Shown: in pieces, positions 5,594 to 37,959 of the stretch
Position numbering within the stretch: position 1 is the first letter of the stretch
Layout of the letters: each line of letters opens with the position of its first letter
IMG/VR virus record: IMGVR_UViG_3300046692_000110
DNA from: a virus
Direction: 5' to 3' (one strand)
Length of the DNA: 37,959 nucleotides
Made by a program: the position numbers and the translations under genes
Notes under the pieces: generated by a model
The model's database searches: none
What the model saw: the letters and a program-made list of their open reading frames with translations, nothing else
Told to the model about the DNA's origin: nothing

Positions 5594-6145
5594 GTGCCGA
5601 TAACCGCCCAGCAGTTACTGCAAATCCTCCCGAGCGCCGGCAAACAAGCCGGCGTTTTTGCGTCTGCACTGAATTTGGCTATGGATCGGTTCCAAATCAA
5701 CACGCGTCTGAGGATGGCGGCGTTCATCGCGCAGGTCGGCCATGAGTCTGGGCAATTCCGATATGTGAAGGAACTAGGTGGCGACCAGTACCTGAGCAAG
5801 TACGACACAGGAACGCTGGCAAAGCGGCTTGGAAACACGCTGGAGGCTGATGGGGACGGGCAGAAATATCGCGGGCGTGGCCTGATTCAGGTCACTGGGC
5901 GCGACAACTACTTGGCATGCAGCAAGGCGCTGTTCGGTGACGATCGTTTGTTGCGGACGCCGGAACTGCTCGAGCAGGCCGAGTGGGCCTGCAAATCGGC
6001 GGCGTGGTTCTGGAATTCAAGAAATCTGAACGCCTTGGCCGATTCTCAAGATTTTGTAGGAGTAACGAAGCGCATCAACGGCGGGGTCAATGGCTTGACC
6101 GAACGGCAAGCCTTTTACAGTGCAGCACTGAAAGTGCTGGCTTAG
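5594..6145 (+). CDS. Endolysin, glycoside hydrolase family 19 (chitinase class I-like)
   Basis: Motifs AAFIAQVGHESG, YRGRGLIQVTGRDNY and INGGVNGLTER are present. Confidence 0.9.
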   Translation: MPITAQQLLQILPSAGKQAGVFASALNLAMDRFQINTRLRMAAFIAQVGHESGQFRYVKELGGDQYLSKYDTGTLAKRLGNTLEADGDGQKYRGRGLIQVTGRDNYLACSKALFGDDRLLRTPELLEQAEWACKSAAWFWNSRNLNALADSQDFVGVTKRINGGVNGLTERQAFYSAALKVLA

Positions 6146-6276
6146 AAATTATGCGGCAGTGAAATGGTTCTGCGGTCTTGGCTTTGCGATTGATCAGATC
6201 GATCCGCCAAGATGCTGCCCATCACTAGTAGCACAAACCCCGCGCCGCCCCGGGGCCTCACTTATGAGTATACAAC

Positions 6277-6792
6277 ATGCCTCAAATCTGGATACGCCTC
6301 CTTCCTTATATAGCTGCGGTGCTGTTGGTGGCCGCCGCGCTGTTCGGCGTCTACCACCACGGCGTGAGTGTCACAAACGCAACATGGCAGGCGCAATGGA
6401 ACGCTCGAGACACCAGGGACGGCCTGGCCAAGGCCGAAAACGAGGCCTCCGCCCGGGCACAGGAGCAGGCCTATCAGCAATCAATCAACAAGGCGGTGCA
6501 AGATGGCCAACGACTCATCGATCAAGCAACTACTGACGCTGTTGCCGCTCGCAATTCTGCTGACAGCCTGCGCGGAGCAGCCGACAGCCTTACCGCTCGC
6601 CTCGCAGCCAGTCAAGCAAGCGGCAATTCCTGCACTGCCGCCGCAAGCAAGGCAGCTACCAGCGCCGCAATGGTGCTTGCCGACGTGCTTAAGCGCGCTG
6701 ACCAGCGAGCGGGCGACCTGGCTGAAGTTGCTGACCAAGCCAGAGCCCGCGGAGTGACATGCGAGCAGGCTTACGACGGGTTGGGGAAATAG
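6277..6792 (+). CDS. Rz: i-spanin (Rz-like)
   Basis: N-terminal transmembrane segment followed by an Ala/Gln-rich coiled coil. It follows the endolysin and contains an embedded lipoprotein ORF. Confidence 0.8.
   Translation: MPQIWIRLLPYIAAVLLVAAALFGVYHHGVSVTNATWQAQWNARDTRDGLAKAENEASARAQEQAYQQSINKAVQDGQRLIDQATTDAVAARNSADSLRGAADSLTARLAASQASGNSCTAAASKAATSAAMVLADVLKRADQRAGDLAEVADQARARGVTCEQAYDGLGK
6503..6757 (+). CDS. Rz1: o-spanin (Rz1-like lipoprotein) embedded in the +1 frame of Rz
   Basis: MANDSSIKQLLTLLPLAILLTAC carries a lipobox, followed by a Pro-rich mature part. The ORF lies entirely inside Rz. Confidence 0.75.
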   Translation: MANDSSIKQLLTLLPLAILLTACAEQPTALPLASQPVKQAAIPALPPQARQLPAPQWCLPTCLSALTSERATWLKLLTKPEPAE

Positions 6793-6907
6793 TGAATCCA
6801 CCAGAATTATTGGTTTACTCGGCGCAACGACAAATGTTACCGAAATGCCTCGGCGGTTAGCGGTTTATAGCTCGATGAGGCAGACCGACTCCCGGCAAAT
6901 TGATTGG

Positions 6908-6938
6908 TGGGGGAAATTTGGTGCAATCATTCCCCCAA
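6908..6938. promoter_or_regulatory. Putative integrase arm-type sites, left arm (TGGGGGAAAT and inverted ATTCCCCCAA)
   Basis: The same 9-10-mers recur at 7141-7183 on the other side of the tRNA-like core. Confidence 0.45.
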
Positions 6939-7021
6939 ATCATGTGGAAAGGTATTGTGTCGGTATGCGTCGAAAGTTAGGCCCTGAAGGGGGTCGCTGG
7001 AATTTCGCCCAATGATCATTT

Positions 7022-7093
7022 GGGCTGAAAACGGATTCGAAATCCGTTGTACCTTCACCGGTACCTAGGGTTCGAATCCCTATCTCTCCGCCA
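7022..7093 (+). other. attP core: 3' portion of tRNA-Ser(CGA), from the D-loop to CCA, not a complete tRNA
   Basis: Anticodon arm ACGGA-TTCGAAA-TCCGT, long variable arm GTACC/GGTAC, T-arm TAGGG-TTCGAAT-CCCTA, and 3' acceptor TCTCTCCGCCA are present. No GGAGAGA 5' acceptor lies upstream. Confidence 0.8.
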
Positions 7094-7101
7094 TATTTAA
7101 A

Positions 7102-7135
7102 GGCCCCGAGTGCTTAACCGCCCCGGGGCTTTTTT
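7102..7135 (+). terminator. Hairpin plus T-run after the tRNA-like segment
   Basis: GGCCCCG...CGGGGCT followed by T5. Confidence 0.6.
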
Positions 7136-7140
7136 GTATT

Positions 7141-7183
7141 TGGGGGAAATCTGGGGGAATGGCTTCTCTTGCGATTCCCCCAA
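7141..7183. promoter_or_regulatory. Putative integrase arm-type sites, right arm (TGGGGGAAAT, TGGGGGAAT, inverted ATTCCCCCAA)
   Basis: The repeats match those at 6908-6938. Confidence 0.45.
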
Positions 7184-7203
7184 GCACCCGCCAATATCCG
7201 CCA

Positions 7204-8181
7204 ATGGCCTATTACGAGAAACGCGGTGACGCCTGGCGAGCCCAGATCCGTCGCAAAGGATACCCGACACTTTCAGCCACCTTCGACACCAAGGCAGAAG
7301 CCCAGCGATGGGCCGCCGAGATCGAGGGTGACATGTCACGCTCGAGATTCGTCGACACGCGCGAGGCAGAGAGCACTACGCTCGATGAGGCCTTAACGCG
7401 GTACGTTAACGAGGTCAGTGAATCGAAGAAAGGTTCGGCGCAGGAGAAGGTCAGGGCCAAGAAGTGGCAGAAGTCGGAATGGGCTTCGACGTCACTGGCC
7501 GCGATCCGCTCCAGCGACATGGCCGCATACCGCGACGCCGAGCTCAAGGCCGGCAAGTCCACAGCAACAGTCCGGCTCAATCTGGCGCTGATCAGCCACC
7601 TTTATACGGTTGCCGCAAAGGACTGGGGGATTCAAGGACTGAAAAACCCGTGCACCGCTATTCGGATGCCGAAGGGCAGCAAGCAGCGGGAGCGACGGCC
7701 GAGCACTGCGGAGCTGAAGTCGCTTTACAAGCATGCCGGCGAAGTGAACGCCGAGATGCCTGTGATTATTGAGCTGGCAGTTGAGACGGCCATGCGCCGG
7801 TCAGAACTGGTGATGCTCAGGAAAGATCAAATCAGGGGGAGAGTTGCATTCCTCGAAGACACGAAGAACGGCGAGCGCCGGTCCGTCCCGCTATCGAAGC
7901 GAGCGGTGGAGCTCCTGGAGGGATTGCCGACGCCAATTGACGGCGGTAGGTTCTTTCACTTGAAGCTGGACAGCGTGAGCAACTATTTCGCGCTGGCATG
8001 CGAGGCGGCGAAGATCAAAGACCTCCGCCTTCACGATATGCGCCATGAGGCGACGAGCCGCCTGTTCGAGCGGGGGCTTTCGGTAATGGAGATTGCGTCC
8101 ATCACTGGCCACAAAACCCTGTCCCAGTTGAAGCGGTACACGCATTTGTGCCCGAACGACCTCGCCGAGAAGCTGGGGTAG
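7204..8181 (+). CDS. int: Tyrosine recombinase, phage integrase
   Basis: The C-terminus HDMRHEATSRLFERGLSVMEIASITGHKTLSQLKRYTH contains the R-H-R-Y catalytic set. The gene is adjacent to the tRNA-derived attP. The ATG at 7204 (MAYYEKRGDAW) is preferred over the ORF-track start. Confidence 0.92.
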   Translation: MAYYEKRGDAWRAQIRRKGYPTLSATFDTKAEAQRWAAEIEGDMSRSRFVDTREAESTTLDEALTRYVNEVSESKKGSAQEKVRAKKWQKSEWASTSLAAIRSSDMAAYRDAELKAGKSTATVRLNLALISHLYTVAAKDWGIQGLKNPCTAIRMPKGSKQRERRPSTAELKSLYKHAGEVNAEMPVIIELAVETAMRRSELVMLRKDQIRGRVAFLEDTKNGERRSVPLSKRAVELLEGLPTPIDGGRFFHLKLDSVSNYFALACEAAKIKDLRLHDMRHEATSRLFERGLSVMEIASITGHKTLSQLKRYTHLCPNDLAEKLG

Positions 8182-9033: not shown

Positions 9034-9214
9034 GGCGTTCCACCTCGATACGTTTCTGGATGCCAGCCCGGTAGCCTTCTGGCCTGAGCGAGGCGGTCTT
9101 TTCGATATTGGCGATGACGCGCTCGACGCCGCCGAATCGTTCATCTACTTGGCGCCCGGCCGCGATCAACTGATCAGCCAGGTTCCAGCCTTCTCTTTCT
9201 TCAATGCGAGACAT
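9020..9214 (-). CDS. Hypothetical protein, 64 aa
   Basis: ORF with normal amino-acid composition in the leftward operon. Confidence 0.55.
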   Translation of the reverse strand: MSRIEEREGWNLADQLIAAGRQVDERFGGVERVIANIEKTASLRPEGYRAGIQKRIEVERHGNV

Positions 9215-10812: not shown

Positions 10813-11532
10813 TTATGCGGCGTCAGTCGTCATCGATCGAGAGGATGGTGAATGCTGTTGCTGCCACTCTTGGGTCTTGCCCGTTGCCAATGGCGCGGTT
10901 CCGGTCCATCCGATCGGCCATCCCATGAGGTTTTCCCAAAAATCCGGGTTCACATACAGCTTCCCGATTGGCGTTCCGCGCAATTTGTTCTGACTGCCGC
11001 CGACCTCCTGGAAAGTCCCCCCCCATCTGCTTGAGCCATGGCATGGAGTCGGCCACGATCCAGCAACGGGAGCGGGTGTGGGCGGCGCCAACATGGTTTG
11101 ATCCCAGCACTCCCCATCGTGCAGAGAACCCCATGTCGGCCAGGTCTCCGAGGACTGTTCCGAGCCCTCGATGAGTGAGAGCTGACGAGTTTTCCACGAA
11201 CGCGAATCGCGGTCGTACTTCGCCAATGATCCTTGCCATTTCCCGCCATAGTCCGCTCGACTCACCCTCGATGCCGGCCTTTTGTCCTGCCTGGGAAATG
11301 TCGGTGCAGGGGAAGCCGCCAGAAACAACGTCAACAGTTCCGCTCCAGGGGCGTCCGTCAAAGGTACAAACATCATCCCAAATGGGGAATGGTGGAAGGT
11401 GTCCTTCATTTTGGCGCTGCATGAGTCTCCTGGAGCAGAAGGAATTGATTTCCACTGCGCAGACTGTTCGCCATCCAAGGAGCTTTCCAGCAAGTATCCC
11501 GCCACCAGCGCCTGCGAAAAGTGCCAGCTCAT
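10813..11532 (-). CDS. Full-length overlapping ORF in the +1 frame of the methyltransferase (frame B, 239 aa), coding status unresolved
   Basis: No stop for 239 codons. It contains SWKTRQLSL, ETWPTWGSLHDGECW, WPTP and NPDFWENLMGWPIGWT. Confidence 0.35.
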   Translation of the reverse strand: MSWHFSQALVAGYLLESSLDGEQSAQWKSIPSAPGDSCSAKMKDTFHHSPFGMMFVPLTDAPGAELLTLFLAASPAPTFPRQDKRPASRVSRADYGGKWQGSLAKYDRDSRSWKTRQLSLIEGSEQSSETWPTWGSLHDGECWDQTMLAPPTPAPVAGSWPTPCHGSSRWGGTFQEVGGSQNKLRGTPIGKLYVNPDFWENLMGWPIGWTGTAPLATGKTQEWQQQHSPSSRSMTTDAA

Positions 11533-11536
11533 TCAT
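10823..11536 (-). CDS. DNA (cytosine-5)-methyltransferase, compact phage type (frame A)
   Basis: Ordered motifs are FAGAGGG (I), GFPCTDIS (IV), FVENS (VI), AAHTRSRCWIVA (VIII) and EPGFLGKPHGMADRMDRNRAIGNGQDP (IX/X). Confidence 0.85.
   Translation of the reverse strand: MNELALFAGAGGGILAGKLLGWRTVCAVEINSFCSRRLMQRQNEGHLPPFPIWDDVCTFDGRPWSGTVDVVSGGFPCTDISQAGQKAGIEGESSGLWREMARIIGEVRPRFAFVENSSALTHRGLGTVLGDLADMGFSARWGVLGSNHVGAAHTRSRCWIVADSMPWLKQMGGDFPGGRRQSEQIARNANREAVCEPGFLGKPHGMADRMDRNRAIGNGQDPRVAATAFTILSIDDD
11017..11024 (-). repeat. G8 homopolymer (C8 on the + strand) inside the methyltransferase locus
   Basis: Counted directly: gtCCCCCCCCatc. It lies between motif VIII and the C-terminal motifs of both frames. 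Confidence 0.9.
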
Positions 11537-11667
11537 TGGAACTCCTGCGTTGGTAAGTTTTGGTCATCGCGCCGTTGACCGTGTTGCCGCGCTTCAGCAC
11601 GACATTGGCCAGCTTCTCGCGGTCTTTCTCGCTGTGGCTGGCCTGACTGAGCAGGCCGAAGTAGCTG

Positions 11668-12114
11668 TTAGGCAGCCTTCTTCGGCTTTGGGCTGGCTTT
11701 GAGCGGAGTGGTCAACGCCTTCTCGACGCTCCAGCCAAGCCGCAGGCGCATGCTCAGTGCGTTGGCGGTCATGCCCACCTCTGCCGCCCAGTCCGCTACG
11801 TTTTTCGTGATGCCGCCATGCTCAAGCATCACGCAGTGTGTACGGTTCTTGTTCTGCGCGGCCTGGGTAACCCATCGGCAATTGCCGGGCTCGTAGCCTT
11901 TGGCGTTCTCGATGCGGTCCAGGGTCATAGCGCGATCAGGGCATTCCCCCATGTCGTCCCGGAAGTTTGCGAAGTAATGCCAGCGCTCACAGACCTTTAC
12001 GCCGAGCGCGCCGTAATACTTGTAGTTGCCGCAGGTGGGCGTATTGCAGCGCTGCATCATCGACTTCCAGCGGGCATAAGTCAGCGTGCCGCAGCCGCCA
12101 TGTTTGATTCGCAT
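11668..12114 (-). CDS. HNH/AP2-like homing-endonuclease-type protein
   Basis: YARWKSMMQRC...YYGALGVKVCERW..F.NF..DMG..P....TLDRIENAKGYEPGNCRWVTQAAQNKN is the typical stand-alone phage HNH pattern. GGAGAA precedes the ATG at 12114. Confidence 0.7.
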   Translation of the reverse strand: MRIKHGGCGTLTYARWKSMMQRCNTPTCGNYKYYGALGVKVCERWHYFANFRDDMGECPDRAMTLDRIENAKGYEPGNCRWVTQAAQNKNRTHCVMLEHGGITKNVADWAAEVGMTANALSMRLRLGWSVEKALTTPLKASPKPKKAA

Positions 12115-12326
12115 GTCGTTCTCCAATGCAGCAAGATCAGGTGTGGGCTCTTGTCCCGAGTCGAGTTAGCCCGGGCAATCAACATCAGCACGTCGATGCA
12201 CTCATCAATAACGCGCTTCCCGAGAGACTGCTTGAGATCTCGGGGAATGTTGCGGGTGAGATTCGTGGCCATCTGTAGCAGGCCGAGCGAACTTTTGTAG
12301 ATACTCAAATCCGTGTGCATTGACAT
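12081..12326 (-). pseudogene. Avd-like four-helix-bundle protein (DGR accessory type), apparently truncated after about 65 aa
   Basis: DLSIYKSSLGLLQMATNLTRNIPRDLKQSLGKRVIDECIDVLMLIARANSTRDKS fits the Avd / 23S-IVS four-helix-bundle pattern (IY.k...l, iPk..k..LG.ri, l.li..AN). The tail runs into the HNH gene and loses the pattern. Confidence 0.55.
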
Positions 12327-12347
12327 CGGCTTGCTCTCCAAGAGCAA

Positions 12348-12365
12348 CCGGCCGCAAGCGGCCGG
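12348..12365 (-). other. GC-rich hairpin with a 4-nt loop between the first variable gene and the avd-like gene
   Basis: CCGGCCG-CAAG-CGGCCGG is a perfect 7-bp stem. Confidence 0.7.
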
Positions 12366-12379
12366 ATTGAATAAATGAA

Positions 12380-13000
12380 TTAATCAATAAGCGTGCTGCG
12401 GACGGGGCGGACGCGGAGCTCGAGGTCCTTGCCGCTGAGGCTCTGACTGCCATCATCGAAGTTCATGTAGAATGCGCTGTAGGCGGAGCGCTGCGTTGAA
12501 GACCAGTAGGCGCGCGGCTTGAAGGCTTCGGGCCCGCCAGTTTGGAAGGCGGGCAGCGTGGTTTGAGCCGGTGAATCTTCGGTGTGCAGCAGGCCGACAG
12601 GCTCGCTGTTCGGGTTGTCACCACTGCGGGCGTACTGCCAGTTTTCATCGGTGGTCGGTTTAAAATGCCGATACTGCAGCTCCTGCACATCACGCGCCGG
12701 GATCGCCCAGTCAGTGAATCCGCCAATGTCCAGGTCCAGCACCTGCTGCGCCAGTTCGCTACCCGCTGCCGCCATCGCTTCAGTGTTCGCCCGACTGTTG
12801 GTGAAGCTGTCGGCGCCTTCGATCTTATCGCCGTACTCGCCCCAGGCACCGACCAGTTCATGCGCGGCACCTGCAGTGATGTTCAAGTAGCGCTTGCCGG
12901 TTTCCGGATCACGGGTGATACCGCTGAAGAACCCGCCGCCGAATGGTTGGCCGATTTCCGGAATGGTCATTGCGGGAGTTACTTGGGCTGTTGCGGTCAT
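12380..13000 (-). CDS. DUF1566 / Lcl C-terminal (C-type-lectin-fold)-like protein, paralogue 1, with a DGR-type variable C-terminus
   Basis: AGGAAAG precedes the ATG at 13000. The C-terminus is YWSSTQRSAYSAFYMNFDDGSQSLSGKDLELRVRPVR. Confidence 0.8.
   Translation of the reverse strand: MTATAQVTPAMTIPEIGQPFGGGFFSGITRDPETGKRYLNITAGAAHELVGAWGEYGDKIEGADSFTNSRANTEAMAAAGSELAQQVLDLDIGGFTDWAIPARDVQELQYRHFKPTTDENWQYARSGDNPNSEPVGLLHTEDSPAQTTLPAFQTGGPEAFKPRAYWSSTQRSAYSAFYMNFDDGSQSLSGKDLELRVRPVRSTLID
12396..12495 (-). repeat. Variable-region-like 100-bp block, copy 1
   Basis: It aligns without gaps with 13091..13190 and 16967..17066. 79 of 100 columns are invariant. Confidence 0.85.
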
Positions 13001-13024
13001 GGTCTTTCCTCTTTCCGAAGGCAG

Positions 13025-13046
13025 CAAAAAAGGCGCTGATGCGCCC
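13025..13046 (-). terminator. Hairpin with a 4-nt loop plus a T-run between paralogues 2 and 1
   Basis: On the minus strand: GGCGC-ATCA-GCGCC followed by T6. Confidence 0.55.
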
Positions 13047-13077
13047 GGTGCCAGATCAACAACGAATGAATGAAGGA

Positions 13078-13680
13078 TTAAATAAAGAATCTGCGGACGG
13101 GGCGGACGCGGAGCTCGTGGTGCTTGCCGTAGTCGCCCTGACGGCCACCACCGAAGCCCACGTAGAATGCGCCGTAGGCGGAGCGCTGCGAGCTCGACCA
13201 GTACCAGGTGTCTTTCGCGAATAACTCCGGCGCATTCACCCAGCAGAGGTACAGCTCGGCGCAGGCAGGCAGGTAGAAATCAGCGTGGCCATCGGCGGAA
13301 TACGCCGATGCAGCCTTGGCCGCAGGGTGATCCCCCTCGGTCTTCAGGGCTTCAGTGTTCGCCACCCCGTCAGTTTTGCTGACGGCCGCTGACGCCTTAT
13401 CGCGTCCGCCCCATTTGTGATCACCGACGTCTTCCTTGGCGATGATCAGGTAGTGCGCTGGGACAGCGCCGCGCGCTGCTACCAGCCCGCCGTTGAAACC
13501 CCCTTGTCCAGGCCATTCAGCGCCGAGTTCGGGTATATCCGTAGGCCCTACCGGTTGGACGTTGGCGGCGGGCGGAAGCACATGGGCAAACACACTGGCC
13601 ATTGCCAGCTTGGCCAACGATGAGGCTGGCATCTTGATCGTGGTTTCGCCATGTTTAAGAGTGATCATTTCGGCTTTCAT
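13078..13680 (-). CDS. DUF1566-like protein, paralogue 2, with a DGR-type variable C-terminus
   Basis: The C-terminus is WYWSSSQRSAYGAFYVGFGGGRQGDYGKHHELRVRPVR. The internal DGHADFYLPA motif is shared with paralogue 3. Confidence 0.8.
   Translation of the reverse strand: MKAEMITLKHGETTIKMPASSLAKLAMASVFAHVLPPAANVQPVGPTDIPELGAEWPGQGGFNGGLVAARGAVPAHYLIIAKEDVGDHKWGGRDKASAAVSKTDGVANTEALKTEGDHPAAKAASAYSADGHADFYLPACAELYLCWVNAPELFAKDTWYWSSSQRSAYGAFYVGFGGGRQGDYGKHHELRVRPVRRFFI
13091..13190 (-). repeat. Variable-region-like 100-bp block, copy 2
   Basis: See copy 1 (12396..12495). Confidence 0.85.
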
Positions 13681-16953: not shown

Positions 16954-17544
16954 TCAAATAGGCAATCTGCGGACGGGGCGGACGCGGCGCTCGCTGAGCT
17001 TGCCGAAGTTGCCCTGATTGCCACCATCGAAGACCATGAAGAACGCGAAGTAGGCGGAGCGCTGCGTGCTGCTCCAGTGCCATTCCTTCGCAAACAACTC
17101 AGACACATTCGCCTCGGCCAGTTGCAGCTCTCGCCGGGCTGGCAGGTAGAAGTCGGCGTGACCGTCAGCCTCGTACTCAGCGCAGGCCGTGGCGGCCGGG
17201 TGATCTTCGTCTTCGATCAGTGCGCGAGTGTTTGCAGCGCCATCAGAAGCGCTACCAGCGCCTTTCACCTCAGTCCCGTAGCTGCCCCACTCGAATTTTC
17301 CGAGGTCCTCAGTAGCCACGATCAGGTAGTAATCAGACTGGCCGTCCACGCCGCGCATCACTCCGGCATTCACACCGCCTTGGCCTTCCCAGTAAGAGCC
17401 GATCGCAGGGATGCCCGCGTTCGCCGCAGGTGCCTTCACTTGGTTGGCGCCGAGCACGAAGTTCGCAAACTGAAGAACCAGCGCCTTGTCCGGGCTGCTG
17501 ATCGTTGATTCGCCGCAGGTGAGGGTGGTCAGTTGATTCGTCAT
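16954..17544 (-). CDS. DUF1566-like protein, paralogue 3, with a DGR-type variable C-terminus
   Basis: AAGGACA precedes the ATG at 17544. The C-terminus is WHWSSTQRSAYFAFFMVFDGGNQGNFGKLSERRVRPVR. Confidence 0.8.
   Translation of the reverse strand: MTNQLTTLTCGESTISSPDKALVLQFANFVLGANQVKAPAANAGIPAIGSYWEGQGGVNAGVMRGVDGQSDYYLIVATEDLGKFEWGSYGTEVKGAGSASDGAANTRALIEDEDHPAATACAEYEADGHADFYLPARRELQLAEANVSELFAKEWHWSSTQRSAYFAFFMVFDGGNQGNFGKLSERRVRPVRRLPI
16967..17066 (-). repeat. Variable-region-like 100-bp block, copy 3
   Basis: See copy 1 (12396..12495). Confidence 0.85.
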
Positions 17545-18677: not shown

Positions 18678-19340
18678 TTACATCTCACCACCACGCCAAA
18701 TAACACGCCCGAGGATCGGTACTTCGTGTAGCGCATCTTCTGAGACCTGTTCGTCCGGGTACTTGGACTTGTCAGTATTGTCACTTCTGATCAGCCAACT
18801 TCCAGTGATCTGTTGAATCAACCTCTTAATGCTAATCCCGCCGTCCGGACGCCGCACAACATAGGCTTGCCGGTCTTTAGGCTCCACTTTCGAGCTGTCA
18901 AACAGAACCACGTCACCCTCAAACACATAGGGCTCCATGCTGTCGCCCTCAGCATAGATGACGTGAAGGTTTTCAGGCTTGGATTTCATGCGCGCGAGCC
19001 AATCCCGCTTGAAGACCAGGCCTTCTGTAACCTCGACATGGTCATTCAGGTATCCGTCGCCGCAAGACCCGTGCGCCTTAAATTGAGGTATCAAAGCGTA
19101 ATCCCTTTCGCTCGGTGAGTGGTGGCTTCTGGATTCATCACCGCCGAACAGTAGCCAATCCGGCGCGACCTTGAGCGCCCTGGATATTGGCTCAACGGTG
19201 TTCTTTCGTGGGCTGCTGCTCTCGCCCGACAGGATTCGATTAATCGTCGGCTGTGGAACGCCAGAGCGCCTAGACAGCTCGCTCTCGCTTAACTCCAGCT
19301 CAGTCATCTTTGCGCGAAGGCGCCCAGCAATATCCATCAT
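18678..19340 (-). CDS. cI: CI-type repressor (XRE HTH plus S24 LexA-like peptidase domain)
   Basis: The N-terminus has LSESELSRRSGVPQPTINRILSG. The C-terminus has GDSMEP and ...ISIKRL. Confidence 0.9.
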   Translation of the reverse strand: MMDIAGRLRAKMTELELSESELSRRSGVPQPTINRILSGESSSPRKNTVEPISRALKVAPDWLLFGGDESRSHHSPSERDYALIPQFKAHGSCGDGYLNDHVEVTEGLVFKRDWLARMKSKPENLHVIYAEGDSMEPYVFEGDVVLFDSSKVEPKDRQAYVVRRPDGGISIKRLIQQITGSWLIRSDNTDKSKYPDEQVSEDALHEVPILGRVIWRGGEM

Positions 19341-36246: not shown

Positions 36247-36656
36247 TGAATAAATTGATTGTGGTGCCTTCGACGCATATCGACGTGGCCTGGAAAGAGG
36301 GTGCGCATCGCCTGGGCCTTGCATGCGCCACTTCAGGCGGCGAGATCAGCGGCGATCAACTGAAGATGATGCTCAGCCGCGGAGAGCGGACCCTGCTCAG
36401 AATGGATCTTGACGAAAAGATCGTTGGGTGGGCGGTGATCGGTGTGGAGCAACTGCCCAACTTCCGCGTCTTGTACGTCTACGAGCTGTACGCACCACAC
36501 GGCAGCTTTGAAAGCTTCTTTGATGAACTGAAAGCAATGGCGCATGCCTTTGGCTGTCTGCGCATGCGCTGCGCTGCCAAACCAGCGCAGGAGCGTCTCT
36601 ATCGGCAGCGCTGTGGATTCGCGCCGGTCTACCAAGTCCTGGAGGTTGAACTGTGA
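36246..36656 (+). CDS. 136-aa protein with a possible GNAT-like fold
   Basis: IVGWAVIGVE...RVLYVYELY...AHAFGCLRMRC...ERLYRQRCGF.. follows the strand/helix order of acetyltransferases but lacks a clear CoA-binding motif. Confidence 0.4.
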   Translation: MNKLIVVPSTHIDVAWKEGAHRLGLACATSGGEISGDQLKMMLSRGERTLLRMDLDEKIVGWAVIGVEQLPNFRVLYVYELYAPHGSFESFFDELKAMAHAFGCLRMRCAAKPAQERLYRQRCGFAPVYQVLEVEL

Positions 36657-37783
36657 ATATTGATGCCCTGCATGAACAGCTCAGTGCAGAATTTGGTGGT
36701 CCTGCTATTGGTGCGTTGCCCGCTTTCCGTGGTGACGTGGTGCGTCCGCATAAGGGCGGAGGTGGGGGCTCAAGCACCACCGTTCAGACCATCCCTGACG
36801 AACTGAAGCCACTTGCGTCGGCTTACAGCAAACGGGCAATGGGGCTTGCCAATCAGCCCTATCAGCCCTATGGCGGTCAGCAAGTCGCTGGGCTGAATGA
36901 CTTCCAAAACGCCTCGGCGAATATGATTGCCTACCGTACGCTCCATGGCGATCCATTGATGGACCAAGCCAGAACCACGGTGCATACCGGGATCGCTACT
37001 GGTAACGCGGCGACGGCAAACCCTTACGGTTATTCGGCAGGCGTTGGCGGTGCCGCGCCATCTGCAGGCGTTGGCGCTGCTTCGTCGGCGGACAACGGCG
37101 GCACCAACCAGTACGCTGGAGCAAACCCGTATTTGCAGCAGAACATTAACGCGGCGTTGGGCGACATCACACGCAACTACAACGATGCGGTGGCTCCAGG
37201 GCTGACCACTCAAATGGTTAACTCTGGATCGTTCGGCAATACCGGGGCTCAGGCATCCACGGCGAACGCGCTCAACGACCTGACCAAGAATCTGGCCAAC
37301 ACGTCTTCCGGCATGCGCATGCAGGACTACCAGACGCAGCAGCAACTGGCCGAAAGCCAGATCAACCGCAATCTGCAAAACAATCAATTCAACGCCGGTA
37401 TGTACGACACGGCGCTCGGGCGCAATCTCCAGAACAACCAGTTCAATGCGGGCCTCGCCGATACGGCATTGGGTCGCTCGCAGCAGAACAACCAGTTCAA
37501 CTCAAGCATGGGCAGCGACTACGCAGGGCGCAATGACCAGATGATGGGCAACATGCTCAACCTGGCACCTACCTTCGGCAACCAGGCCTACACGGATGCT
37601 TCCCAGCTGATGAAGGTAGGTCAGGAGTATCAGGACAACAGCCAACAGGGCCTTGATGCTCAGTATCAGAGCTATCTGGATCAGCAAAACCTTCCTTATA
37701 AGCAGCTCGCCGCCATGTCCGGGGTATTCGATTCAGGCCTTGGCCAGACGCAATCAACGAAATCTTCTGGAGGCGGTAAATAA
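36653..37783 (+). CDS. 376-aa Asn/Gln-rich internal virion (ejection-type) protein
   Basis: GTG start overlapping the upstream stop. It contains three tandem 18-aa repeats. Confidence 0.65.
   Translation: MNIDALHEQLSAEFGGPAIGALPAFRGDVVRPHKGGGGGSSTTVQTIPDELKPLASAYSKRAMGLANQPYQPYGGQQVAGLNDFQNASANMIAYRTLHGDPLMDQARTTVHTGIATGNAATANPYGYSAGVGGAAPSAGVGAASSADNGGTNQYAGANPYLQQNINAALGDITRNYNDAVAPGLTTQMVNSGSFGNTGAQASTANALNDLTKNLANTSSGMRMQDYQTQQQLAESQINRNLQNNQFNAGMYDTALGRNLQNNQFNAGLADTALGRSQQNNQFNSSMGSDYAGRNDQMMGNMLNLAPTFGNQAYTDASQLMKVGQEYQDNSQQGLDAQYQSYLDQQNLPYKQLAAMSGVFDSGLGQTQSTKSSGGGK
37367..37528 (+). repeat. Three tandem 54-bp repeats encoding RNLQNNQFNAG..DTALG
   Basis: Units lie at 37367-37420, 37421-37474 and 37475-37528. 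The third unit is more diverged. Confidence 0.8.
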
Positions 37784-37959
37784 TGCTCCCACTATTAGCT
37801 ATCCCGATTGTTGCTGGTGCCGTCATTGGTGCATTTTCGGATAAGAAAAAACCACTGCGCGGCGCCGCCTTGGGTGCAGCGGCTGGCGCTACCGGTGGCG
37901 GGTTGCTGGGCGTTGGTGCGGGAGCGGCGGGAGCAGGTGCTGCTGGAGCAGCAGGTGCT
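37783..37959 (+). CDS. N-terminal part of an Ala/Gly-rich membrane-anchored virion protein (continues at base 128 after circularisation, 183 aa in total)
   Basis: The ATG overlaps the stop of the upstream gene (TAATG). The N-terminus MLPLLAIPIVAGAVIGAF is hydrophobic. The frame continues into 2..502. Confidence 0.7.
   Translation, partial: MLPLLAIPIVAGAVIGAFSDKKKPLRGAALGAAAGATGGGLLGVGAGAAGAGAAGAAGA
37833..37959. repeat. Terminal overlap, exact copy of 1..127
   Basis: Same as the 1..127 repeat feature. Confidence 0.95.

Follow-up and report, generated by a model that had tools for sequence, protein, structure and literature searches.

The analysed window, a stretch of 37,959 nucleotides, is the genome of a temperate Pseudomonas phage and carries three 100-nt blocks at the 3' ends of three DUF1566 genes, which are very probably the variable repeats (VRs) of a diversity-generating retroelement (DGR) whose core, consisting of avd, the template repeat (TR) and the reverse transcriptase (RT) gene, was replaced by an HNH-bearing module, leaving the target genes orphaned. 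The genome is circular and complete, with a length of about 37.8 kb (positions 1-127 are the same as 37833-37959), and is a decayed copy of a DGR system already catalogued in related Pseudomonas phages; the intact cassette is available in GenBank, e.g., in phage Cruim01. The VRs and the target genes are represented by the following features:

12396..12495, minus strand: VR-A, the 3' end of target gene A (nhmmer with a VR profile, E = 6e-28)
13091..13190, minus strand: VR-B, the 3' end of target gene B
16967..17066, minus strand: VR-C, the 3' end of target gene C, a remote gene whose VR precedes VR-B by about 3.9 kb in the coding direction
12380..13000, minus strand: target gene A, 206 aa, DUF1566/Lcl_C (PF07603, E = 5.3e-8; phrog_4245, E = 9e-30), adjoining the avd remnant
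13078..13680, minus strand: target gene B, 200 aa, DUF1566/Lcl_C (PF07603, E = 3e-5; phrog_4245, E = 3e-30)
16954..17544, minus strand: target gene C, 196 aa, DUF1566/Lcl_C (PF07603, E = 2.6e-4; phrog_4245, E = 6e-36)

The ungapped alignment of the three minus-strand blocks, from which the preliminary description of this DNA had proposed adenine mutagenesis, was reproduced in all its counts: 21 columns are variable, 20 of them at codon position 1 or 2 and one at position 3 (GCA/GCA/GCG), and 18 of the 21 contain A in at least one copy. Two conserved blocks of 17 and 21 nt are each found exactly three times in the 37,959-nt sequence, even with three mismatches allowed, while shuffled sequence gave on average 0.24 and 0.00 matches, respectively. 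The described contrast with the remaining parts of the genes is also present, pairwise identity at third positions being 97-100% inside the block and 36-44% in the gene bodies. Conserved third positions might be regarded as an uninformative by-product of the strong G+C codon bias, with NNC codons, of a Pseudomonas phage; most variable codons do end in C, and C is the preferred codon ending for many amino acids in Pseudomonas. The probability of this explanation is negligible, and the comparison of third positions inside and outside the block refutes it: GC3 of the three target genes is only 0.70-0.73 and cannot explain such a contrast within the same genes, and the non-preferred endings GAT, AAT/AGT and GCA are kept inside the block as well.

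The template itself was found in relatives. A search proposed earlier was performed with the pattern AATCAGAACAACAACGNCAAGAACAAC, in which A is written into every variable column, and gave exact matches in 85 IMG/VR loci and 28 contigs of Pseudomonas genomes, where the matched sequence adjoins a bAvd gene and an RVT_1 reverse transcriptase. The TR reads CGCAGCGCTCCGCCAACAACGCATTCAACATGAAC.... In the relatives it follows the last target gene at a distance of about 650-750 nt, the cassette running avd, RT-15 RNA (Rfam RF03018), TR and RT, with RT-15 directly 5' of the TR in this DGR family. The cassette of the related locus L003 encodes bAvd (PF22296, E = 2e-11) and RVT_1 (E = 6e-17); that of L085 comprises avd (5944-6294), RT-15 (6284-6474), TR (6473-6572) and RT (6587-7666); RT-15 scores in L003, L043, L085 and L148 are 157-188 bits. 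Thus, the claim of DGR adenine mutagenesis from an AAC-rich template is supported by the TR in relatives and by the specificity for A sites.

The template reconstructed in the preliminary description agrees with the consensus TR at 80 of 84 bases and is wrong at columns 15, 27, 64 and 79. The adenines of columns 15, 27 and 64 could not be inferred, since all three VRs of this genome carry the same non-A base there; column 79 is T in the TR and is mutated in gene C alone. At column 55 all three VRs have G, and the A nonetheless written there corresponds to the TR. N-masked patterns with T fixed at column 27 (in the first of them also at column 15) retrieved 88 VR copies and no TR. A template-less mechanism was ruled out once the all-A pattern had retrieved the TR, which has A at column 27, where the VRs of this genome have T. 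The DGR signature is, accordingly, readable from the VRs alone, and the predicted template was good enough to retrieve the TR from public data.

The consensus TR used as the reference for the VR counts is that of L085, the closest intact relative, which shares 91% identity with this genome over 2.2 kb. Relative to it, 12 of 31 A sites are changed in VR-A, 18 of 31 in VR-B and 17 of 31 in VR-C; the 69 non-A sites are unchanged in VR-A and VR-B, and the single non-A change in VR-C is T>G at column 79. Pooled over the three VRs, changes affect 47 of 93 A-site cells but a single one of the 207 non-A cells (Fisher p = 1.4e-27). The changed TR-A columns number 24, and the amino acid changes in 14 codons. 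Comparison of the VRs of L085 with those of this genome gave the same picture: VR-A differs in 17 columns, all 17 being A sites of the TR, and VR-B in 22, including 21 such sites.

The fetched related loci contain 257 VR and 116 TR copies, with a bimodal distribution of the A count. The TR is identical to the consensus in 44 of 109 copies; where a local TR departs from it at non-A positions, the VRs of the same locus carry the variant in 239 of 241 cells, and across the fetched loci 31 of 14,111 non-A cells distinguish a VR from the TR of its own locus. Conservation climbs to about 1.0 exactly at column 1 and drops after column 100, so that the limits of the VR block are those of the TR. The TR adenines at columns 4, 16, 52, 66, 67, 76 and 99 are near-invariant in all VRs, which is tentatively attributed to selection on the Q, K and E scaffold residues.

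A sharply bounded block in three copies of one genome would also be left by ordinary gene conversion that homogenised the 3' ends of the paralogues, followed by diversifying selection at codon positions 1 and 2 with no retroelement, and conversion tracts can be short. Yet the changed sites are exactly the adenines of the TR known in relatives, all four bases are present at them across the 257 VRs, the block limits coincide with those of the TR, and remnants of avd and the RT gene lie beside gene A. Plain gene conversion is refuted by the existence of the TR, the A-site specificity and the cassette remnants, and its probability is close to nil.

The GC-rich end of the VRs, previously described as IMH-like, is indeed invariant, but it has no role in distinguishing VR from TR: the block is identical in both, and they diverge only past column 100-104. 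This identity points to a shared 3' homology where mutagenesis stops; changes halt before the invariant 24-nt end. Downstream of two VRs, hairpins were detected:

12348..12365, minus strand: GC-rich hairpin about 30 nt after VR-A, with a 7-bp stem and a 4-nt loop (CTTG)
13031..13046, minus strand: weaker GC hairpin about 45 nt after VR-B, with a T-run behind it

The first of them may act as a target-site element, as a terminator, or as both. The search downstream of VR-C revealed no hairpin comparable to these two. Hairpins of BPP-1-type DGRs lie 4-34 bp after the VR (PMC3240598).

Of the cassette, the region following gene A contains only remnants, listed here with the neighbouring genes:

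12129..12326, minus strand: avd remnant, codons 1-66 of the 118 in intact relatives (tblastn with L003 Avd, match to residues 1-66, 83% identity, E = 9e-35)
11668..12126, minus strand: HNH endonuclease gene, likely ATG at 12114, 148 aa (phrog_3377, E = 1.6e-47; phrog_374, E = 5.5e-41)
11544..11696, minus strand: RT remnant, the last 51 codons (tblastn with L003 RT, match to residues 334-384, 65% identity, E = 2e-16)
10823..11536, minus strand: C5 DNA methyltransferase gene (Pfam DNA_methylase, E = 3.5e-25)

The avd remnant matches phrog_3206, 'Avd protein of DGR' (E = 5e-14, profile positions 8-74 of 154), and gave no match to Pfam bAvd; its ORF (12081-12347) continues out of frame into the HNH gene. 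The latter stands where intact relatives have the 3' half of avd, the RT-15 RNA, the TR and most of the RT gene, in an interval of about 460 bp versus about 1400 bp in those relatives; homology to more than 100 related loci ends at 12129-12138 and restarts at 11669. In the complete circular genome, no fourth copy of the repeat was found with the pattern at up to three mismatches, nhmmer or blastn; tblastn with L003 RT gave nothing significant beyond residues 334-384; RVT_1 was absent from the larger ORFs subjected to Pfam scans (23 ORFs in all), and the Rfam scan at gathering thresholds revealed no family at all, hence no RT-15. A hidden TR or RT in this genome is excluded by these searches. 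With the TR and RT absent and only remnants present, the DGR is defunct in cis and its three targets are orphaned, although all three target genes retain intact ORFs.

The C5 methyltransferase gene is missing at the matching place in L085 and is located beside the HNH gene in L043; it is probably part of the replacing module, together with the HNH gene and the RT remnant. The avd remnant shares 97-98% identity with its intact counterparts in L085 and L103, and the non-A mismatch of the VRs, 1/207, is to be compared with 0.2% in intact loci. Most likely, the core was lost by recent recombination, possibly homing, into an L085-like phage. The HNH gene may represent a homing endonuclease that cleaves the HNH-less allele and spreads through recombinational repair, for which the junctions of related HNH genes are circumstantial support.

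HNH genes of related loci are located in the same place, with a common right junction and three different left junctions.

In terms of the mechanism established for DGRs, the cassette of intact relatives, situated just downstream of gene A, would operate through an RT-Avd complex that reverse-transcribes the TR RNA, inserting random bases opposite template adenines, and the resulting cDNA would replace the homologous 100 nt at the 3' ends of two or three DUF1566 genes. The codons predicted to vary are nine AAY and six single-A codons, and the computed repertoire is about 3x10^13 possible protein sequences per target. Here, replacement of the 3' half of avd, RT-15, the TR and RT codons 1-333 by the HNH module, probably with the C5 methyltransferase gene, would mean that the element itself can no longer diversify the targets and that the VRs preserve the outcome of the latest retrohoming events, provided that no co-resident DGR having this TR acts on them.

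Consequently, the orphan VRs are either frozen or diversifiable only in trans. Rewriting of the VRs in trans, the donor being a co-resident or co-infecting phage whose DGR belongs to this family and is intact, would be compatible with the loss of the cassette and concerns present activity only; we regard it as rather unlikely. It is consistent with the TR being near-invariant across more than 100 phages, the VRs of this genome matching its commonest variant at all non-A sites but one, and with the apparently intact target-site features of the VRs. Two such prophages may be present in one isolate genome, for instance in IMG 2639763197 (contigs _000004 and _000006) and 2687453636 (_000003 and _000005). 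For BPP-1, a plasmid donor with DGR functions acts on a separate recipient, IMH plus hairpin being a sufficient target (PMC3240598), and remote targets are on record (PMC5758913). However, no TR-bearing viral contig of the same genome was found among the matches for the TR-less prophage L043 (isolate 2802429405), and VR-C is not followed by a hairpin. Moreover, the recent loss suggested by the identity of the avd remnant explains pristine VRs without action in trans.

Locus L004 bears on both sides of this question. It has the avd/HNH junction of this genome while its gene bodies are 28-31% diverged, yet the VRs of both genomes match a TR variant at all non-A sites but one, and column 83 shows a concerted difference, with C in all three VRs here and T in both VRs of L004. 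A junction common to two genomes despite about 30% divergence implies that the deletion allele was spread by recombination or, alternatively, that the loss is old and the VRs were maintained afterwards. A single ancient deletion common to both conflicts with the 97-98% identity of avd; recombinational or homing spread of the deletion allele fits better and can account for the shared junction.

The products of the target genes were assigned to the DUF1566 family. Gene A has the RBS GAGGAAAGACC ahead of its ATG; gene C starts from the ATG at 17544 in an ORF open up to 17646 and is 46% identical to gene B in the gene body. The DUF1566/C-type-lectin assignment of the preliminary description holds insofar as Pfam Lcl_C/DUF1566 matches were obtained for all three proteins (E = 5e-8 to 3e-4), all of them below the gathering score; in each protein they reach the C-terminus, which is the VR end of the domain. 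The C-type lectin (CLec) assignment of DUF1566 is taken from the literature (PMC5758913, PMC6642488). For the gene A protein 1147 homologues were found, and the named ones among the matches listed are all Pseudomonas 'DUF1566 domain-containing protein'; most target homologues among the matches listed have a precomputed PF07603 match. A protein identical to that of gene A is also encoded in sequencing run SRR26076607, on Logan contig SRR26076607_583971.

The AF2 model of the gene B protein has a mean pLDDT of 71, with 84-91 in the core and 38-46 in the VR segment (residues 157-189). Among BFVD models it matched DUF1566 phage proteins (E = 6e-7 to 1e-3), whereas Foldseek against PDB gave nothing below E = 1, and the weak VapB-like matches to its N-terminal hairpin-helix (E > 1) represent noise. 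The sole match of a sequence profile search of PDB was 8q4e 'HbP1' (E = 0.012), uninterpretable as a relative of gene B, since the literature gave only the unrelated human HBP1. The model of the gene A protein, built with 56 close orthologues aligned, had a mean pLDDT of 53, with values below 50 in the C-terminal half, and was discarded.

The preliminary description considered these targets unusual. Its novelty was overrated, because DUF1566 is a standard class of DGR targets and Pseudomonas ranks with the most DGR-rich genera (PMC5758913, PMC6642488); the location in the early leftward operon, by contrast, was correctly identified. The reported absence of a signal peptide holds at the level of a crude hydropathy scan, the sole test, in which neither a signal peptide nor a lipobox could be recognised. 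In phages, tail proteins make up most DGR targets (PMC8144416), whereas the targets here are early, non-structural and apparently cytoplasmic. This phage family may diversify two or three small DUF1566 binding proteins of the early operon and not tail fibres, with a putative intracellular role, e.g., binding variable proteins of host defence or proteins of competing phages, while the shared near-invariant TR may let core-less phages keep their targets diversified via co-resident relatives. We offer this reading as a speculative one with a low probability; if true, the DGR core would be a shared good repeatedly knocked out by HNH and other cassettes.

Among known systems, the DUF1566-type DGR of Legionella pneumophila LdtA (CLec2, category 'd'; PMC5758913) is similar in the C-terminal VR of a short DUF1566 protein, the AAC-rich TR codons, the A-to-N changes stopping before a GC-rich 3' block and the Avd accessory protein; in the relatives of the present phage there are also several targets, one of them non-adjacent. 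LdtA is a surface lipoprotein, whereas the targets here belong to a phage early operon and have no signal peptide or lipobox recognisable by the crude test, and this copy, unlike the LdtA DGR, has lost the TR, the RT and half of avd. Bordetella phage BPP-1 (mtd-avd-TR-brt) shares with the intact relatives the order target, avd, TR, RT and adenine-specific mutagenesis, and with this genome the GC-rich VR end and a GC hairpin with a 4-nt loop, found here downstream of VR-A (PMC3240598). In BPP-1, diversification acts on Mtd, the receptor-binding protein of the tail fibre, while a phage of the present family has two or three targets, which are non-structural early genes; in addition, unlike in BPP-1, the hairpin loops after VR-A and VR-B (CTTG and ATCA) are outside the GRNA consensus, and TR and VR are the same through the GC-rich block.

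The same DGR family, with orthologous targets, is present in Pseudomonas phages Cruim01 (PP179333.1), SC_8_H2H8_2017 (MT121966.1), Haboob and VB_PaD_phPA-G; these GenBank members share 80% nucleotide identity with L085 across the whole cassette. In the Cruim01 record, the RT and RT-15 RNA are annotated, and where its TR has non-A variants, both of its VRs have them too; this genome, unlike Cruim01 and its kin, contains no RT-15, TR or RT. The immediate importance of the genome is modest, as it adds one decayed example to a DGR family already in databases; what still deserves interest is that the targets are non-structural and lie in the early operon, that the cassette has been lost repeatedly and that servicing in trans may occur. 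Cruim01, with its intact cassette, and the TR-less Aurca01, both infecting Pseudomonas syringae CC1557, are a cultured pair that makes target function and diversification in trans testable.

VR-bearing targets without a TR, as in this genome, were also found in Aurca01, Medea1 and the IMG/VR loci L004, L022, L043, L055 and L066; in all of these but Medea1, the VRs were checked, and their non-A sites continue to agree with a known TR variant. Replacement of the core was seen in Aurca01 at the level of the locus and in L043 from the ORFs; for the other TR-less loci, the absence of the TR alone was established. The avd-TR-RT core appears as a replacement hot spot, with HNH genes in this genome, L004, L022 and L043 and a RecB-like gene in Aurca01 at the place of the HNH gene. 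Since such replacement leaves orphan targets, automated DGR finders that search for the RT first will miss them. The arrangement of L022 is related to that of this genome, but L022 retains TR columns 1-43; L043, also unlike this genome, has kept RT-15 and a complete avd, and its HNH gene is longer.

The window carries the remnant of a DGR (diversity-generating retroelement): three target genes with intact ORFs, without a template, a polymerase or a functional Avd (accessory variability determinant). The targets and their terminal variable repeats (VRs) are as follows.

Target genes and variable repeats of the window
12380-13000, minus strand: gene A, DUF1566/Lcl_C paralogue, 206 aa
13078-13680, minus strand: gene B, DUF1566/Lcl_C paralogue, 200 aa
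16954-17544, minus strand: gene C, DUF1566/Lcl_C paralogue, 196 aa
12396-12495, minus strand: VR-A, terminal 100 nt block of gene A
13091-13190, minus strand: VR-B, terminal 100 nt block of gene B
16967-17066, minus strand: VR-C, terminal 100 nt block of gene C

The three blocks align without gaps, and every detail given for them in the preliminary description was reproduced: 21 columns vary, 20 at codon position 1 or 2 and one at position 3, and 18 contain A in at least one copy. The invariant 17-nt and 21-nt blocks occur in the window at these three sites only, with up to three mismatches tolerated. Third-codon-position identity of the paralogues is 97-100% in the block versus 36-44% in the gene bodies; since GC3 of genes A-C is only 0.70-0.73, codon bias is ruled out as the cause of block conservation. 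Membership in DUF1566, also proposed earlier, agrees with the HMM search, in which all three genes matched Pfam Lcl_C/DUF1566 (PF07603) with E = 5e-8 to 3e-4, under the gathering score; phrog_4245 was matched by all three proteins alike.

The ends of the window form a perfect direct repeat (1-127 = 37833-37959, 100% identity), so that it represents a complete circular assembly of ~37.8 kb, or a circularly permuted one. This repeat falls within a Gly/Ala-rich repetitive coding region (82-188). No fourth block copy was detected in the complete window with a pattern search, nhmmer or blastn. When the variable columns were set to N, patterns detected 88 more copies in ~73 IMG/VR contigs, with all four bases at these columns and the remaining columns practically invariant. 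None of the 88 was template-like; the template repeat (TR) escaped these patterns because its columns 15 and 27, T in every window copy, are A. The pattern with A at each variable column, AATCAGAACAACAACGNCAAGAACAAC, matched 85 viral loci, many of them already known to hold VRs, and 28 genome contigs (25 Pseudomonas, one Ectopseudomonas, one Phytopseudomonas and one Pseudomonadaceae MAG). The consensus TR, CGCAGCGCTCCGCCAACAACGCATTCAACATGAACTTCGATGATGGCAATCAGAACAACAACGACAAGAACAACGAGCTCCGCGTCCGCCCCGTCCGCAG, contains 31 adenines and is identical in 44 of 109 copies. The template previously reconstructed from the window agrees with it at 80 of 84 bases and departs from it at four.

The TR located in this way lies next to a reverse transcriptase (RT) gene in related phages, as had been anticipated. 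Locus L003 contains a gene B-like gene, a gene A-like gene, bAvd (PF22296, E = 2e-11), TR and RT (RVT_1, E = 6e-17, YVDD present), in this order. Among relatives that have an intact cassette, L085 (IMGVR_UViG_3300046515_000280; 91% identity over 2.2 kb) is the closest; its RT-15 RNA (Rfam RF03018) abuts the TR.

Intact cassette of L085
5944-6294: avd
6284-6474: RT-15 RNA (RF03018)
6473-6572: TR
6587-7666: RT

Of the 119 loci with sufficient flanking sequence, 105 contain both VR and TR, and in 101 of these 105 the distance from the last VR to the TR start is 650-750 nt. The number of VRs in TR-bearing loci is one (13 loci), two (81) or three (11). The cassette is also present in GenBank phages, including SC_8_H2H8_2017, Cruim01 (RT and RT-15 annotated), Haboob and VB_PaD_phPA-G.

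Comparison with the consensus TR showed changes in 47 of 93 A-site cells of the three window VRs versus one of 207 non-A cells (Fisher p = 1.4e-27), the latter being T>G at column 79 in gene C. In a profile search of all fetched loci, 257 VR and 116 TR copies were obtained; their adenine counts are bimodal, with 10-24 of 31 kept in VRs and 29-31 in TRs. Relative to the TR of the same phage, 31 of 14,111 non-A cells differ in VRs across these loci, and non-A variants of a phage's own TR recur in its VRs (239 of 241 cells). Column conservation among 220 unique VRs is ~0.4-0.8 upstream, reaches ~1.0 from column 1 (non-A columns) and drops past column 100, so that its limits coincide exactly with the TR boundaries. 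Between the window and L085, 21 of the 22 differing columns of VR-B and all 17 of VR-A are TR-A sites, and the sequence outside the VRs differs by 7.9%. The A-site-specific differences, together with the TR in relatives, support the adenine mutagenesis proposed from the window sequence.

Over all loci, TR adenines at columns 4, 16, 52, 66, 67, 76 and 99 are unchanged in 92-100% of VRs, while at the other 24 adenine columns the commonest base accounts for only 28-77%. The seven stable adenines belong to CAG, AAG and GAG codons or form the second base of the initial AAC codon. They probably reflect selection for scaffold residues; a context effect on misincorporation is the alternative explanation. 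Locus L023 (IMGVR_UViG_3300025621_001498) contains block copies at 7751, 8453 and 9153. The copy at 9153 is at the TR locus, being followed by the usual TR-downstream sequence, yet it is VR-like and not A-rich (A at 12 of 23 columns scored as variable); the two VRs differ from it at very few positions, mostly at its remaining adenines. It is either a TR overwritten by a VR or a drifted TR still in use.

Homology of the window to more than 100 related loci extends over genes B and A into avd, ends at 12129-12138 and restarts at 11669. The ~1400 bp of the relatives (3' half of avd, RT-15, TR and RT) correspond to a filler of ~460 bp.

Core remnants and filler in the window
12326-12129, minus strand: avd remnant (tblastn, Avd residues 1-66 of 118)
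12081-12347: 88-aa ORF, phrog_3206 'Avd protein of DGR', profile positions 8-74 of 154
11668-12126: HNH endonuclease gene, the filler (phrog_3377, E = 1.6e-47)
11696-11544, minus strand: RT remnant (tblastn, RT residues 334-384)

No further significant tblastn match to RT was detected in the window, and RT-15 was not found there by Rfam scan. The RT remnant is followed by a C5 methyltransferase gene, which is missing at this site in L085 and lies beside the HNH gene in locus L043; on this comparison, the replacement module probably comprises the HNH gene, the RT remnant and the methyltransferase gene. Two long ORFs on the minus strand of the window, 10813-11532 and 10823-11536, overlap almost wholly in different frames. 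One encodes the C5 DNA methyltransferase (phrog_363, E = 9e-54); the other, with WPTP motifs and the C-terminal end NPDFWENLMGWPIGWT, matches a different 'DNA methyltransferase' family (phrog_1008, E = 2.5e-16), as well as small families without an assigned function. L043 has conserved the pair (6673-7701 and 6677-7711); genuine dual coding, a frameshifted methylase or PHROG families built from wrong-frame gene calls could account for it.

The avd/HNH junction of the window is also present in L004. In L022, the same kind of HNH gene is joined at TR column 43. The window, L004 and L022 share their right junction, which lies in the RT tail. The HNH gene of L043 (5912-6532) is longer, belongs to the same PHROG families and follows complete avd and RT-15 near the TR start; L055 and L066 align to the window as L043 does (alignment only). 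In the cultured phage Aurca01, the core site is occupied by a RecB-like gene (5934-6425); the VRs of this phage nevertheless carry 29T, 31A and 80T, which are the three non-A variants found in the TR of Cruim01, its sister phage. The varied HNH junctions and the RecB-like gene indicate that the core was replaced repeatedly, which suggests that homing-type cassettes prefer it as a landing site. A single ancient deletion behind the junction of the window and L004 fits less well, since the avd remnant of the window is 97-98% identical to intact avd of L085 and L103 and only 66% to that of L004. Judging from these sequences, recent import of a deletion-plus-HNH allele by recombination into an L085-like phage would fit, possibly by HNH homing. 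Recent loss would also explain the undecayed VRs, with 1/207 non-A sites changed versus 0.2% in intact loci.

Nothing within the window is able to mutate the VRs. That a co-resident DGR having the same TR still diversifies them in trans seems rather unlikely, although it is mechanistically possible: in BPP-1, a plasmid donor with DGR functions serves a separate recipient target, and the IMH (GC-rich VR-end target-site element) plus a hairpin is enough to make a target (PMC3240598). Remote DGR targets are known (PMC5758913), and some isolates contain two prophages of the window's phage family. At column 83, the window and L004 differ concertedly although they have a common junction, which hints at re-templating after loss; recombination is an equally good explanation. 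VR-A is followed after 30 nt by a GC hairpin (7-bp stem, 4-nt loop) and VR-B by a weaker one; none was found downstream of VR-C.

Genes A-C are located in the leftward early operon, as described earlier, below a CI-like repressor gene (18678-19340) and among a YqaJ-type exonuclease and other early genes, with an integrase gene further on. The reported lack of a signal peptide is matched by a hydropathy scan, a crude test, in which no N-terminal hydrophobic segment of signal-peptide or lipoprotein type was found. Most DGR targets of phages are tail proteins (PMC8144416), which makes this early and apparently intracellular location unusual. For gene B, the AF2 model shows high confidence in the core and low confidence in the VR loop. 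In BFVD it matches DUF1566 proteins of phages, among them an uncharacterised protein from Pseudomonas phage D3 and distal domains of proteins resembling tail fibres. No PDB match was found for this model, so the C-type-lectin fold follows the literature assignment of DUF1566 (PMC5758913, PMC6642488). Residues 1-35 of the model form a β-hairpin plus helix, with weak, non-significant Foldseek matches (E about 1.6) to the VapB antitoxin (VapBC1, Caulobacter); this module is present in genes B and C and absent from gene A. The variable TR codons are nine AAY (15 amino acids each), one in which just the first base varies (4), one ATG (3) and three GAY (4 each), from which we calculate ~3×10^13 possible protein variants. 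By analogy, the targets may bind a variable ligand.

DUF1566 VRs form class CLec2, category 'd', of a DGR survey, in which short DUF1566-only proteins represent about half of category 'd' targets (PMC5758913); Pseudomonas is among the genera in which DGRs are found most often (PMC6642488). Since this class, the curated Rfam RNA RT-15 at the 5' side and GenBank phage records annotating RT and Avd already exist, the window represents a degenerate case of a known DGR type. What remains of note is that the targets are non-structural, that endonuclease cassettes have knocked out the core recurrently, and that servicing of orphan targets in trans is a testable possibility. Elsewhere in the window, ORF 36653-37783, for which no Pfam match was found, contains two tandem 54-nt copies, 70% identical (37367-37474).
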